A stretch of DNA of 61,990 bases, from assembly GCA_019745315.1 (NCBI GenBank), contig JAIETH010000005.1:1-61990 (forward strand), written 5' to 3'. The notes under the pieces are model-generated. The model did no database searches and was not told the DNA's origin. It saw only the letters and a program-made list of their open reading frames with translations. Below are positions 2,892 to 14,063 of the stretch, piece after piece. How positions within the stretch are numbered: position 1 is the first letter of the stretch; every line of letters starts with the position of its first letter. Both the position numbers and the translations under genes were made by a program. The DNA comes from Patescibacteria group bacterium (lineage in GTDB: Bacteria > Patescibacteriota > Minisyncoccia > Phycocordibacterales > UBA918).

Positions 2892-3806
2892 ATGAGTATA
2901 CAAGAAGCAATACGCGAATTTCTTCAATATCTTGAGATAGAAAAAGGTCGTTCTGCAAAGACTATAGATAACTATGGGCACTACCTCGAACGTTTTGTTG
3001 TGTATTCTAAGATCAAAGCCCCGGCTGATATAACAGAAGTCCTTATTCGTGAGTACCGTGTATGGCTTAATCGCCAGCCGGGCACAAAGGTTGGTAGGAA
3101 TATAGAGACAATGAAGCGACGCACCCAAAATTACTACCTTATTGCGCTTCGTGCTTTTCTTAAGTTTTTGCGTAAGCGTGGTATTGAGTCTGTTTCTCCT
3201 GAGCGTATTGAGCTGGCGAAGGTTGGCGAGCGTCATCTTGACCTTATTACTGAAGCTGAATTAAATCGCCTCCTTGATGCCCCTGACGTAAAAAGTACAC
3301 AAGGAATGCGTGATCGCGCAATTTTAGAGCTCCTTTTCTCTACTGGTCTTCGCGTATCCGAGCTCTGCGCCCTTTCAATTGATGATGTTGATCTCTCTCG
3401 TGATGAATTTTCAGTGCGTGGGAAAGGAGATAAGGTTCGTGTAGTTTTCTTAACAGAGGCTGCGAAGCGCTGTATTAAAGAGTACTTGGCTTCGCGAAAA
3501 GATATGGACGATGCGATGTTTGTGCAGTATGGAAAAAACGCTAAAAATGCGAAAGAATTACGCCTCACAGTGCGCGCGGTGCAGAGACTTGTGAAATTCT
3601 ATGCTGCGAAGGCAGGTATTACGCGCAAGGTAACCCCTCACGTTATTCGCCACAGCTTTGCGACGGATTTATTAGGAAATGGTGCTGACCTCCGCTCGGT
3701 ACAAGCGCTCTTGGGGCATGCGAATATCGCGACAACTCAGATCTATACGCATGTCACTGACTCACATCTCCGCGAAGTGCATAAAAAATTCCACTCAAGA
3801 AAATAA
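2892..3806 (+). CDS. xerC: XerC/XerD-family tyrosine recombinase (paralogue identity cannot be resolved)
   Basis: RDRAILELLFSTGLRVSEL, HVIRHSFATDLL, LGHANIATTQIYTH: the catalytic R-H-R-H-Y set is intact. Confidence 0.92.
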   Translation: MSIQEAIREFLQYLEIEKGRSAKTIDNYGHYLERFVVYSKIKAPADITEVLIREYRVWLNRQPGTKVGRNIETMKRRTQNYYLIALRAFLKFLRKRGIESVSPERIELAKVGERHLDLITEAELNRLLDAPDVKSTQGMRDRAILELLFSTGLRVSELCALSIDDVDLSRDEFSVRGKGDKVRVVFLTEAAKRCIKEYLASRKDMDDAMFVQYGKNAKNAKELRLTVRAVQRLVKFYAAKAGITRKVTPHVIRHSFATDLLGNGADLRSVQALLGHANIATTQIYTHVTDSHLREVHKKFHSRK

Positions 3807-8343: not shown

Positions 8344-8795
8344 CAAAGGTAACAAAAAAACACCAACTTCACTGGTGTTTTTTTGTTAAAACGAAAACTG
8401 CTTTGCGTTTGTGCCTTTGTGCCAAACGGAAACATGTTTTATTTATAAAACAGTTGAGTTCGGGGAGGAAGTTCTTAATGAGCAAAGCGAATTTAGAAAC
8501 TTGACCCCACAAAAATAAGGTATTTTCAGAGATTATATGGCTCAACAAGAACGCAAAAAGCCCATCATGTAAACATGAGGGCTTTTTGTGACGCAACTAT
8601 TAAGAAATACGTCAGGTGAAGTGACTCTTAGCTTTTTATAAAGCATATAAGCCAATTCTTTAAAGAACAGAATCGGCGCCGTGTGCGCCGAGGGTACTTT
8701 ATAACACGCGCTCCGAGTCGTGTCATGTGGATTATGCACTTCCGCACCATATACTGGATTTAGCGATGGTCTGTAGTATAATCTGAGCTACATTT

Positions 8796-8866
8796 GCGGG
8801 TATGGTTTAGTGGTAGAACACGTCCTTGCCAAGGACGAGTCGAGAGTTCGATTCTCTCTACCCGCA
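8796..8866 (+). tRNA. tRNA-Gly(GCC)
   Basis: Acceptor GCGGGTA/TACCCGC, anticodon arm CGTCC-TTGCCAA-GGACG, T arm GAGAG-TTCGATT-CTCTC. TATAAT at 8777-8782. Confidence 0.96.
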
Positions 8867-9182
8867 CAAAGGAGCGAAGCGACTATTGTGCGCTGGCGCT
8901 ACTGCGCCAGTAGGAGGAATCGAAGACCTTGCGAGCTAGCTTTTCAAGCTTTTGTGCAGAAAAGTAGCCACAAGGTGTACTGAACATGTAATGTTCGATT
9001 CTCTCTACCCGCACAAATAAGCGAAGCGTTTTAGGTGGGTAAGCAAGACGCGGGGCGTCTTGCGTGGGAGAATCGAACGGCGGAGCGGGACCCGTGCTTG
9101 CACGGGAGCGAGCCGTGTCCCGCGGCACTTATGAGCGAAGCGAATTAGTGACCGTCAGGACGATTCTCTCTACCCGCACAAA
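8867..9182 (+). repeat. tRNA-appended palindromic repeat module with two units (core A and core B)
   Basis: Direct copies of the tRNA 3' end at 8993-9017 and 9161-9182, partial inverted copies at 8886-8924 and 9066-9077, and three GCGAAGC. Confidence 0.85.
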
Positions 9183-9240
9183 AACGTCAAAAAAGACTAG
9201 CGATACCGCTAGTCTTTTTTGATCACACTGCGTCTTTTAC

Positions 9241-9400
9241 ACATACAGTTTCAAAATATCAATAAAAAGCCTATAAAATATAAGCAGATTGTCCACACGG
9301 TAGGGGTACATAGACCTGTGCATAAGACAGGGGATATGTGTATAAAGGACGTCTTTTATATAATTGTTTTTTAACAAATGGCTTAAAATAAGGCTTTTTA
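9241..9400. promoter_or_regulatory. DnaA-box cluster with AT-rich flanks (oriC candidate)
   Basis: TTGTCCACA 9289-9297, TGTGCATAA 9317-9325, TGTGTATAA 9337-9345. AT-rich 9241-9288 and 9351-9400. Confidence 0.45.
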
Positions 9401-9876
9401 AAAAAGACAAGTTTCATGTGAAACAGAGTATATTTCTCAAAAATGTGAAAAAAGAAGCAAAACATTTACGCATTGGAAGAATTGGAGAGCGGGCTGTGGC
9501 CAATCACCTCAAAAGGAAGGGATTTACAGAACTTGAATCAAACTTCCGTACTAAGACAGGAGAAATTGATCTTATCTTCAGAAAAGAAGAAAAAGTTTAC
9601 TTCGTAGAAGTTAAGACTGTCTCTGTTGAGAGTGGGAGAGCTTCTGTTTCATATGAAACAGAGGGTGGGGGGTACAGAGATGTTTCACGTGGAATATATA
9701 GACCGGAGGATAATGTGCATCATGATAAGTTACGAAAGATTCTTAATACCATTCAAGTATGGATATCTTTGAATAAGTATGAGGGTTTGTGGCAGCTTGA
9801 TATTGCTTCTGTATATCTTGACCTTAAGGATAAGCGCGCACAGGTACGTTTCATAGAAAATATCATAGTGGAGTAA
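9364..9876 (+). CDS. yraN: YraN family (UPF0102) PD-(D/E)xK nuclease-like protein; start uncertain
   Basis: GRIGERAVANHL, NFRTKTGEIDLI, YFVEVKT, WQLDIASV. Confidence 0.85.
   Translation: MFFNKWLKIRLFKKDKFHVKQSIFLKNVKKEAKHLRIGRIGERAVANHLKRKGFTELESNFRTKTGEIDLIFRKEEKVYFVEVKTVSVESGRASVSYETEGGGYRDVSRGIYRPEDNVHHDKLRKILNTIQVWISLNKYEGLWQLDIASVYLDLKDKRAQVRFIENIIVE
9410..9696. other. Three parS-like sites within the yraN ORF
   Basis: AGTTTCATGTGAAACA 9410-9425; TGTTTCATATGAAACA 9645-9660 (perfect palindrome); TGTTTCACGTGGAATA 9681-9696. Confidence 0.7.
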
Positions 9877-9969: not shown

Positions 9970-10040
9970 CGGGGCGTAGTATACCGGTAGTACGTCTGGT
10001 TTGGGACCAGATAGACCGAGTTCGATTCTCGGCGCCCCGA
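9970..10040 (+). tRNA. tRNA-Pro(UGG)
   Basis: Acceptor CGGGGCG/CGCCCCG plus A73, anticodon arm TCTGG-TTTGGGA-CCAGA, T arm CCGAG-TTCGATT-CTCGG. Confidence 0.95.
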
Positions 10041-10227
10041 ACGTAGTGAGGAAGAAAAAGCGGAGCTTTTGTCCGAGAATCGAAAGCCGGAGCGGTGCCG
10101 ACCAAGGGTCGGCCGCGAGGCAGGGCTGTAAGCACTTAGTATTTTGAGCAAAGCGATAAATACTTAGTGACTTATGGCCGATTCGGCGCCCCGAACGTAG
10201 TGAGGGAAAAGCACGTTCCGAGCTTTT
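10041..10227 (+). repeat. tRNA-appended palindromic repeat module (core B)
   Basis: Inverted T-arm copy CCGAGAATCGAA at 10073-10084. The 23-nt direct repeat TCGGCGCCCCGAACGTAGTGAGG is at 10029-10051 and 10183-10205. Confidence 0.85.
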
Positions 10228-10358: not shown

Positions 10359-10907
10359 ATGGCGAAAGAAACGTCACAAGAAGCTGGAGGAACCCAAGAG
10401 GATCGGTTTTTGAAAGCATTTGATGAATACGCAGACGCGCTCTTTCGTCATGCGACGATGCGGCTCTCTGATAGGGAGCGTGCCATAGAGCTTGTACACG
10501 ACACTTTCACAAAGGCGTGGACTTACGCAAACAATGGCAATCTAATTGAGTCGTATCGTCCGTTTCTATATAAAATACTCGGAAATCTAATAATTGATGA
10601 GTATAGACGAAGACGTACAGAATCTCTTGATTCAATCCTTGAAGAAGAGGGAATGGATACTGGGAGGTTTAGAGATCTCCAGGAGGGTTCGCTTGAAGAG
10701 TCTCTTGCTGCTCTTGATGCAAAGCGCATCATAGAAGCCATGGAGAAGCTCCCGGCAATTTACAAGGAGACCCTCGTTCTCCGTTTCGTTGATGGATTGG
10801 GACCAAAAGAGATAGCAACCCTTATTGAAGAGACGGAGAATGTTGTTTCTGTTCGATTGAATAGGGGAATGAGCTTGCTACGAGAGATTGTGACAAAAAA
10901 AGAATAA
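10359..10907 (+). CDS. ECF-type (group 4) sigma-70 factor
   Basis: Region 2 AIELVHDTFTKAW...PFLYKILGNLIIDEYRR; region 4 LPAIYKETLVLRFVDGLGPKEIATLI...VSVRLNRG. Confidence 0.9.
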   Translation: MAKETSQEAGGTQEDRFLKAFDEYADALFRHATMRLSDRERAIELVHDTFTKAWTYANNGNLIESYRPFLYKILGNLIIDEYRRRRTESLDSILEEEGMDTGRFRDLQEGSLEESLAALDAKRIIEAMEKLPAIYKETLVLRFVDGLGPKEIATLIEETENVVSVRLNRGMSLLREIVTKKE

Positions 10908-13666: not shown

Positions 13667-13737
13667 GCGGGGTTAGTTTACCGGTAAAACATCTGCCTTC
13701 CAAGCAGAGGTAGAGGGTTCAATTCCCTCACCCCGCA
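13667..13737 (+). tRNA. tRNA-Gly(UCC)
   Basis: Acceptor GCGGGGT/ACCCCGC, anticodon arm TCTGC-CTTCCAA-GCAGA, T arm GAGGG-TTCAATT-CCCTC. Confidence 0.96.
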
Positions 13738-13983
13738 CCGAGCGAAGCGAGGAGAAAAAACAGCCTGCAAGGGCTGTTTTTTCCTGCGGGGTGAGGGAAT
13801 TGAAAACCTTGCGAGCTATCTTTTCGAGCTTGCGAAGAAAAGTAGCTGAATAGCACAGGGTTCTATTCAGAGGTGTACTGATCCTGTAAGGATCAATCAC
13901 ACTATCCGCACCAACGAAAAAGAGCCCGTTAGGGCTCTTTTTCCTGCGGGGTGAGGGAATTGAACGGGGACGAGGTCAATTCC
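13738..13983 (+). repeat. tRNA-appended palindromic repeat module (core A)
   Basis: Perfect 20-nt inverted copies of tRNA 13718-13737 at 13785-13804 and 13945-13964. Degenerate direct copy at about 13891-13912. Confidence 0.85.
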
Positions 13984-14063
13984 TTAAAATATAACAACTT
14001 GCTCTCGGCAATTTTACCTGTATTGTTATTGAAGGCGACTCAATGCCTCATCGAGGGAGAGAA

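Follow-up and report, generated by a model that had tools for sequence, protein, structure and literature searches.

What is the sequence that recurs, nearly five kilobases (kb) apart, behind two transfer RNA (tRNA) genes for glycine in a 61,990-nucleotide (nt) stretch of DNA from a Patescibacteria group bacterium (contig JAIETH010000005.1 of assembly GCA_019745315.1, positions 1 to 61,990, hereafter the window)? The shared sequence, Core A, lies at 8926–8996 and 13806–13894, in both cases 42–50 nt downstream of a tRNA-Gly gene. We lean towards the view that small insertion modules (~110–160 base pairs (bp)) which encode no protein form a family here, with Core A as their conserved, folded centre; the module built around Core A most likely integrates in a structure-dependent manner and is non-autonomous. 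It could be matched to none of the RNA families of Rfam 15 and to no mobile element described in the literature searched.

An initial annotation of the window had reported three strings shared by the two copies in the same order, and reading the letters confirmed their positions: ACCTTGCGAGCTA is found at 8926–8938 and 13806–13818, AGAAAAGTAGC at 8958–8968 and 13836–13846, and AGGTGTACTGA at 8973–8983 and 13871–13881. The variable hairpin that it placed between the last two strings is present in copy 2 (13847–13869), but copy 1 has just CACA there. The terminal hairpins GAACA-TGTAA-TGTTC (8982–8996) and GATCC-TGTAA-GGATC (13880–13894) differ, as reported, by two compensated pairs around a constant loop, and in both copies the 3' arm of the hairpin does continue into a repeated T-loop and 3' end of the tRNA, a stretch which is exact in copy 1 (8993–9014) and degenerate in copy 2 (13893–13912). 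Two matches to the pattern GGTGTACTGA-N3-TGTAA-N3-TC were counted in the window, compared with 0.00 expected from 100 shuffles, and chance is thereby excluded as the source of the likeness. The initial observation was correct but understated, since it missed that Core A belongs to a 26-copy family, that the core is enclosed by a closing stem derived from the tRNA tail, and that copy 1 is subject to an insertion/deletion polymorphism between strains.

The size of the family became apparent from the genome to which the window belongs (G000; 771 kb, 44% G+C, 98.8% complete, 15 contigs, the window being contig C3). For at least 15 of its 36 tRNA genes, the final 18 nt of the gene recur within 600 nt downstream, in direct or inverted orientation. 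A simple pattern retrieved 13 Core A copies, 12 of them lying 100–210 nt behind a tRNA gene, and a covariance model (R1) built from these 13 copies raised the number to 26, with the same core standing behind at least 12 different tRNAs. The search of related genomes with the model was also positive: Core A was detected in 32 of 41 relatives, representing 18 of 26 genera, with 0 to 38 copies per genome and wide differences within genera, and nine of the 41 had no copy at all. A pattern scan of 185,579 species genomes matched at least 119 contigs; among the matches listed, all named records but one belong to Patescibacteria (e.g., Parcubacteria, Paceibacterota, Kaiserbacteria), the remaining one being labelled Verrucomicrobiota. 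When the phylum was sampled thinly (301 genomes), model matches were confined to the order of the window's own genome, with 14 candidates scored per genome, so that absence elsewhere is weakly supported; within this margin, the Core A module appears to be a feature of one order of tiny-genome bacteria of the candidate phyla radiation. In two related assemblies, Core A copies are located at contig ends. Four relatives carry tandem Core A pairs with equal model scores, ~140–185 bp apart (G001, C3:74246-74613, locus L037; G018, C1:235411-235634; G007, C4:96151-96424; G036, C43:326-581), and both copies at L037 are identical in every part read; such pairs indicate recent local amplification.

On the tRNA-sense strand, Core A folds into a three-way junction, which consists of a closing stem (P0), a long arm (P1–P2) and a 5-bp hairpin (P3). 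P0 is formed by an inverted copy (X') of the 3' part of the neighbouring tRNA, which pairs with a direct copy of the same part. P1 comprises 6 bp and occurs in three subtypes (ACCUUG/CAAGGU, AGGUUG/CAACCU and CCCAAUUG/CAAUUGGG); a small internal loop separates it from P2, which is A/U-rich and 9–10 bp long. The junction reads GUACU, and P3 has the form GA-NNN-UGUAA-NNN-UC with an invariant loop. The initial annotation had proposed that structure is selected over sequence, a claim that a larger alignment devoid of covariation would have contradicted; two larger alignments, of 13 and 73 copies, clearly show covariation. The 13-copy set stems from the window's own genome and was aligned with MAFFT, with no model fitting. 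In this set, 88% of the cells are paired, compared with 66% in shuffles and 27–39% when the partners were slid by 1–3 columns; changes on both sides are seen in 13 of 20 pairs, all cells of P3 are paired (100%) and three of its pairs covary freely, and RNAalifold predicted P1, P2 and P3 unaided. The larger set comprises 73 distinct copies from the same genome and 24 relatives in a model-fitted alignment, which is biased towards pairing: 96.1% of the stem cells are paired (71.8% when shuffled), both-sided changes affect 19 of 20 pairs, the covariation score is 0.576 as compared with 0.151, and none of 500 shuffles reached any of these measures.

Two further properties reveal what kind of molecule is likely to fold. 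Read on the tRNA-sense strand, G·T and T·G cells are more frequent than A·C and C·A cells (35 vs. 9; 12 vs. 1 in P1 alone), which points to this strand as the one that folds, either as RNA or as single-stranded DNA (ssDNA). In addition, a P3 stem that covaries freely around an invariant loop speaks for a hairpin and against a duplex protein-binding site. By the measure of these alignments, the fold is shown to be under selection, and on one strand. A pseudoknot between the UGUAA loop and the GUAC part of the junction was considered and rejected, as variants with a GAAC junction keep the loop unchanged, without compensation.

The two copies of the window illustrate the architecture of the modules; all of their parts and both tRNA genes are encoded on the plus strand. 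Copy 1 is located behind tRNA-Gly(GCC) (8796–8867; ARAGORN; Rfam tRNA model, 71.9 bits). A first direct repeat (8846–8881; repeat search) covers the tRNA from the T-loop to the 3' end (GTTCGATTCTCTCTACCCGCAC) and the trailer AAAGGAGCGAAGCG, which contains the mini-hairpin motif GCGAAGC. It is followed by the left part of a 147-bp unit (8882–8925), which was delimited by sequence and is absent in the strain contigs L066–L069. The left part is composed of ACTATT, GTGCG (8888–8892), which is antisense to the acceptor 3' end, the hairpin CTGGCGC-TACT-GCGCCAG (8893–8910) and TAGGAGGAATCGAA (8911–8924), which is antisense to the 3' strand of the T-stem and to the T-loop and pairs with 8997–9010 in the RNA fold; the left part is therewith an inverted copy of the tRNA tail (X') that is split by a hairpin. 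Core A copy 1 (8926–8996; model R1, 90 bits, E 1.7e-16 for 8910–9001; fold z-score −4.2) contains P1 (ACCTTG, 8926–8931, and CAAGGT, 8971–8976), P2 (GCTA(G)CTTTTC, 8935–8945, and GAAAAGTAGC, 8959–8968), the junction GTACT (8977–8981) and the P3 hairpin at 8982–8996. The unit ends with a second direct repeat (8993–9028; repeat search, 94% identity), which comprises a second copy of the tRNA 3' part and the trailer AAATAAGCGAAGCG; the two repeats of 36 nt each differ solely by GG/TA.

Copy 2 follows tRNA-Gly(UCC) (13667–13739; ARAGORN; Rfam tRNA model, 69 bits). Its X' is TGCGGGGTGAGGGAATTGAA (13785–13804), an exact inverted copy of tRNA-Gly(UCC) positions 54–73 (12/12 for the T-arm part), which recurs identically at 13945–13964 (repeat search; 27 nt, 100%). 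Core A copy 2 (13806–13894; model R1, 69.9 bits, E 4e-12 for 13790–13899) has a P1 of ACCT (13806–13809) and AGGT (13871–13874), a P2 formed by 13815–13825 and 13837–13846, the extra hairpin at 13847–13869, the junction GTACT (13875–13879) and the P3 hairpin at 13880–13894. The direct copy of the tRNA-Gly(UCC) tail, TCAATCACACTATCCGCACC (13893–13912), is degenerate and matches at 7 of 17 positions without gaps.

This layout is found throughout the family. Read on the tRNA-sense strand, a unit consists of a short spacer, which often contains a hairpin; X', which is an inverted copy of host tRNA positions 54–73 and is often split at the boundary of T-stem and acceptor by a hairpin with a YGGGR loop; the core; and the direct copy of the tRNA tail, starting at position 55–57. 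Judged by its sequence, X' is the complement of the tRNA 3' strand; the idea that it copies the 5' strand was rejected, because X' has an A opposite U71 where tRNA-Glu has a G2·U71 pair. The cores behind tRNA-Gly(GCC) and tRNA-Leu(CAA) are 87% identical and their arms are unrelated, each pair of arms matching its own tRNA. At two tRNA-Glu genes, the frames (trailer, hairpin and split X') are 96% identical over 104 nt, and the cores belong to different subtypes with P1–P2 arms that are 53% identical. In a relative of the same genus (G001), the same four tRNAs are syntenic and both tRNA-Gly genes carry Core A modules, whose arms match the T-arms of that genome, which differ from those of the window's genome; the core behind its tRNA-Gly(GCC) has another P1 sequence, which resembles the second subtype of the window's genome. 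These comparisons show that cores and arms are reshuffled independently of each other.

The modules are not restricted to tRNA genes. Copies were also found directly after groEL, after ftsZ (as a nested twin) and after a uvrC-like gene, and at the groEL and ftsZ sites the arms copy the last 15–35 nt of the gene. Two tRNA-Glu genes and tRNA-Arg(GCG) have a copy on the opposite strand immediately upstream; next to both tRNA-Glu genes, the arms copy the 5' flank in antisense. At the groEL site and at the 5' flank of tRNA-Glu(CUC), the 3' arm of P3 belongs to the direct copy, and the complement of the target is split around P1–P2. Comparison of arms and neighbours shows that the arms evidently copy whatever gene end the unit follows, mostly that of a tRNA, but also that of groEL and ftsZ. 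Short solo versions, which consist of a GGTGTACWG box and the TGTAA hairpin, exist as well. One subset of units has a direct tail copy with 1–2 additional nt in its T-loop part (GAAATTCC instead of GAATCC; L054, L058, L065, L048; in the window's genome C1:11493, C1:61783 and C2:107057); in this subset, the inverted copy is a perfect 12/12 complement of the tRNA, and several P3 hairpins are closed by GG..CC, not by GA..TC. At tRNA-Glu(UUC), a 23-nt duplicate of the 5' end of the tRNA (GGCCCTATCGTCTAACGGTTAGG) is located ~90 nt upstream of the gene (C1:268215-268330), where it adjoins a minus-strand Core A copy and the perfect palindrome CCAAATTAATCC/GGATTAATTTGG.

Closely related strains differ in the units that they carry. 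A look-up with the sigma-factor protein encoded at 10359–10907 identified five metagenome contigs (L066–L070), which are 97.5–99.3% identical to the window. L066, L067, L068 and L069 lack the 147-bp segment 8882–9028 with its spacer, X', Core A and one of the 36-nt repeats; in them, a single copy of the 36-nt repeat joins the tRNA straight to the second unit downstream. A 154-bp unit with a different type of core, located behind tRNA-Pro (10052–10205, plus strand; repeat search) and bounded by the direct repeats TCGGCGCCCCGAACGTAGTGAGG (10029–10051 and 10183–10205), is absent in L066, L067 and L070 and present in L068 and L069; again, one repeat copy is left at the empty sites. Whole units are thus shown to be gained or lost between direct repeats in near-identical strains. 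The empty sites behind tRNA-Gly(GCC) carry the GG variant of the repeat in L068 and L069 and the TA variant in L066 and L067, which fits recombination between non-identical repeats with differing crossover points rather than a fresh target-site duplication. The direct copy behind tRNA-Pro is 2 nt short of the tRNA sequence and is therefore not a faithful duplication. We read the strain pattern as conservative, Campbell-type gain and loss mediated by the repeats, with at least one loss and with insertion as the putative step. For groEL, the glyoxalase-like gene, HU and the pterin dehydratase, strain contigs were either not found or too short for a comparison.

The same contigs revealed further variable positions. 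The stretch behind tRNA-Arg(UCG) (8345–8515) also differs from that in L066 and L068; L068 has a different type of module there (GCAGG...GCGAAGCAAAGGC...CGAGCTGGGGTCGCG), and L066, L067 and L068 contain ~37 extra nt near position 8510. A yraN-like gene (UPF0102/NERD) is present as a single open reading frame (ORF) of 170 amino acids in the window (equivalent to 9364–9876) and in L066, and as two pieces of 86 and 74 amino acids in L068 (1948–2407) and L069 (479–938).

How a unit without a protein could move is answered here by a model, which we put forward tentatively as a whole. The unit would move as a folded single strand, in which the stem of X' and tail rebuilds a duplex copy of the target, as in the attP(+) site of the CTX phage or in integron attC sites. 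It would enter and leave by conservative, Campbell-type recombination between the tRNA-tail copy on the element and that in the chromosome, by means of host functions such as Xer or RecA, and the core would serve as a handle recognised by a host factor. New arms would be acquired, in the simplest case, by copy-choice (template-switch) synthesis on the target.

The closest parallels to this model are CTX-phage attP(+), the Xer-exploiting elements (IMEX) and integron attC sites. Like the modules, these systems have an inverted and a direct arm on either side of a loop, and the hairpin into which the arms fold restores a duplex site; one strand is folded, and its structure is conserved while the stem sequence is free. 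Moreover, the unit lacks a recombinase of its own, units form arrays, and a tyrosine recombinase is present in the host. However, the stem of the modules is a copy of the target gene's end that changes from locus to locus, a three-way junction takes the place of the bulged hairpin in the core, and neither a partner resembling dif or attI nor IntI was found, the genome having a single PF00589 gene and no separate search for integron integrases having been made. That gene, at 2892–3806 on the plus strand of the window, is the only tyrosine (Xer-like) recombinase gene of the genome (PF00589, C3:3246-3764, E 2.4e-47) and a candidate for the host enzyme; at least one PF00589 gene is present in 40 of 41 genomes, and most relatives have just one.

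With tRNA-targeting integrative elements and CIME-type attL-attR remnants, the modules share that a direct repeat of the tRNA 3' part, which begins in the T-loop, brackets the insert (8846–8881 and 8993–9028) and leaves the tRNA intact, and that units come and go between the repeats. In contrast to such elements, which carry an integrase, with one integrase per tRNA, the modules are only 110–160 bp long and bring an inverted copy of the target with each unit: the 147-bp unit has no ORF and no integrase gene, and at least 12 tRNAs face one PF00589 gene in the genome, the same core being found at 20 or more tRNAs and at protein genes. REP and REPIN sequences with their RAYT partners and the IS200/IS605-derived PATEs resemble the modules as short, non-autonomous, multi-copy hairpins after genes with a strand-specific fold, but the arms of the modules are templated on the neighbouring gene and not fixed, the direct repeats are long, and no Y1 transposase is found in the genome or in several copy-rich relatives. 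The modules also differ from miniature inverted-repeat transposable elements, which have fixed terminal inverted repeats and a short duplication: their arms vary by locus and equal the local gene end, and the flanking repeats are 20–36 nt long and not faithful.

Searches for other enzymes and families were negative or led to rejection of the candidate. With Rfam 15 at gathering thresholds, the whole window yielded four tRNAs and nothing else, and at E values of up to 10, the region 8780–9200 yielded the tRNA and two chance matches to plastid models, both on the tRNA itself. A hammerhead or another of the known ribozymes (twister, pistol, hatchet) was rejected, as the order GAAA-stems-CUGA did not fit by eye and no match was found in Rfam. 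The reverse transcriptase domain RVT_1 (PF00078) was detected in 10 of 41 genomes only and is absent from G000, G001, G015, G007, G021 and G018, which have 21–38 copies each; a retroelement route was rejected on account of its absence from these copy-rich genomes. Likewise, Y1_Tnp (PF01797) gave no match in G000, G015, G019 and G013 (10–35 copies each), and a Y1/RAYT route was rejected. A dif-like sequence as a link to Xer was discarded, since naive dif patterns gave nothing convincing, and a TCGAA target-site duplication because the left flank at TTCAA T-loops is TTGAA, an inverted copy.

Several points weigh against the proposed model. In silico folding of the minus strand of copy 1 gives a result at least equal to that of the plus strand. 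Genomes free of Core A have Xer, too, and naive pattern searches identified no dif-like site in or outside the modules. All differences between the strains could be deletions caused by slippage or by homologous recombination between the repeats. Where direct copy and tRNA disagree, X' pairs with the real tRNA in eight cases and with the copy in the module in only two (seven pair with both and are ambiguous), which makes the real gene, as pairing partner or template, seem more important than the stem of the module itself. Finally, the model leaves unexplained how both arms come to match a new target. A bolder idea, which we consider rather doubtful, is that the modules represent a mobile system of a type not yet described, in which a nucleic acid sequence specifies the target, with a conserved scaffold (P1–P2, GUACU and the UGUAA hairpin), one split antisense copy and one sense copy of the target, and arms that would be re-templated for each target, at or soon after insertion. 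Its targets would be the ends of tRNA, rRNA (ribosomal RNA) or mRNA (messenger RNA) genes, and it would need no protein encoded by the element, being either a ribozyme-like or ssDNA element or the substrate of an unrecognised host enzyme.

If the arms are truly templated on the target, the modules would be a mobile element or an RNA whose specificity is copied from its landing site; we know of no described transposon, integrative element or guide-RNA system that does this. The abundance is notable as well: 26 copies of Core A in 771 kb, with other core types in addition, are found in bacteria known for extreme genome reduction, and at least two units differ between strains that are 98–99% identical. 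In practical terms, the duplicated tRNA tails can mislead the annotation of tRNAs and att sites, and the three-way junction with its invariant GUACU and UGUAA provides a defined object for biochemistry and a clean marker for one order of Patescibacteria.

The alternative that survives best, although it is unlikely, is a tRNA-like non-coding RNA with a function for the host, which would share a transcript with the tRNA and be released by the enzymes of tRNA processing. In this RNA, P0 would be a long acceptor-like helix containing the 3' strand of the tRNA, P3 a mimic of the T-arm and P1–P2 an analogue of the anticodon arm, and possible roles are those of a decoy, sponge or regulator for tRNA-binding factors. 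The order of P0 5' strand, arm, junction, 5-bp hairpin and P0 3' strand matches the order in tRNA, and this topology with its 5-bp P3 fits a predicted stack of acceptor and T-arm; the UGUAA loop may likewise correspond to a T-loop pentamer of the form U-N-N-R-A. Moreover, tRNA-Gly(GCC) is not separated from the two units behind it by any promoter- or terminator-like site, the first terminator-like hairpin being located at 9187–9222; the fold is specific to the tRNA-sense strand, X' is still complementary to the real tRNA, and conservation extends across the order. Known tRNA-like domains, such as the TLD of transfer-messenger RNA (tmRNA), the viral 3' TLS and mascRNA, likewise have an acceptor-like helix that ends in a tRNA 3' strand, a 5-bp hairpin at the position of the T-arm and an extra arm. 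In the modules, however, the T-loop nucleotides are paired and have no D-loop partner, the acceptor-like helix is 17–20 bp long, and at E up to 10 no Rfam family was matched beyond tRNA and the two chance plastid models. In addition, the units are dispensable in near-identical strains and number 0 to 38 among the relatives, with none in 9 of 41; several copies, e.g., those at tRNA-Leu(UAA) and tRNA-Gly(UCC), are located behind a terminator-like hairpin with a T run; and a role in processing would require no arms identical to the neighbour and would not explain the copies behind groEL and ftsZ.

Even less probable is a programmable element with a guide in two parts, X' and the 5' strand of P3, which would base-pair with sense-strand sequence exposed at the 3' ends of highly transcribed genes. 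Insertion of the unit would then fall to an enzyme or ribozyme scaffolded by the core, and the repeat would be defined by how far guide and target pair. The sites themselves are compatible with such a guide: nearly every examined copy adjoins either one end of a tRNA gene or a protein gene's 3' end and points away from the gene, which at the 3'-end sites means reading on the gene's sense strand. The direct repeat begins where the complementary region ends, and a conserved scaffold divides the target's complement into two parts; at groEL and on the antisense side of the 5' flank of tRNA-Glu(CUC), the direct copy includes the 3' arm of P3. Against a guide speaks that no candidate effector was found, that re-programming for each new target is left unexplained, that the three variable pairs of P3 are not derived from the tRNA at most tRNA sites and that the repeats are not faithful duplications.

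The weakest alternative considers the modules as passive by-products with no function of their own, made by replication template switching or fork U-turns at heavily transcribed genes or left as decayed attL/attR scars of integrase-borne islands. In its favour, template switching is known to produce perfect inverted copies of sequence nearby, heavily used genes provide the 3' ends at which the sites lie, and serine-recombinase islands sit between two tRNA genes and their module arrays. This origin is nevertheless highly improbable: a scar would not be expected to preserve, throughout an order, a three-way junction in which GUACU and UGUAA are invariant and 19 of 20 pairs covary, nor a core that is 87% identical between unrelated tRNAs, and the islands carry different junction repeats of 12–17 bp of their own. 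The two islands in question, each ~12.8 kb long, are located outside the window behind tRNA-Trp and tRNA-Glu(UUC) (C1:65124-77900 and C1:268382-281100). Judged by eye from the sequence, each encodes a large serine recombinase (440 and 426 amino acids, respectively) and a ParB-like/DNA-methylase protein, and one of them contains a terminase-like protein and the other a protein of 1611 amino acids. Their junction repeats are AGCACGAGACGC and CTCGAGAAGGGTCGAGA. The islands were rejected as the source of the modules, since they have junction repeats of their own and merely split tRNA-Trp and tRNA-Glu from older module arrays.

Besides the modules with Core A, the window contains units with other cores in the same frame of inverted and direct tRNA-tail copies (9029–9183, 10052–10182 and 13945–13990); outside the window, such units are found at C1:78040-78130 and after tRNA-Gln(UUG). 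The second unit behind tRNA-Gly(GCC) (9029–9183, plus strand) is of the Core B type (GGCGGAGCG...GCGAGCC...TTATGAGCGAAGCGAATTAG), contains the inverted T-arm copy GGGAGAATCGAAC, and ends with a third copy of the tRNA tail (9161–9183); it is kept in every strain contig that covers this stretch (L066–L069) and is followed by the terminator-like hairpin mentioned above, which was identified by a terminator scan. Another small core consists of a GGGG-loop hairpin and YGCCGAGGGACGAGG, and an 11-nt remnant, CGGGGACGAGG, is located at 13965–13975. ARAGORN predicts 36 tRNA genes and no tmRNA gene in the genome, which is rated 98.8% complete.

The trailers of the tRNA genes have a motif in common as well. 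The sequence GA(R)CG(W)AG(Y)GA (e.g., GAGCGAAGCGA and GAACGTAGTGA) is found 1–6 nt after many tRNA 3' ends throughout the genome and is part of the direct repeats; in the window, it occurs at 8868–8881, 9015–9028, 9131–9146, 10041–10051 and 13740–13752. Its centre, C(GNA)G, has the form of the very stable DNA mini-hairpin d(GCGAAGC), and the flanks covary (GC..GC vs. AC..GT). It was also seen at an empty site of tRNA-Pro and after the module-free tRNA-Ser(GGA).

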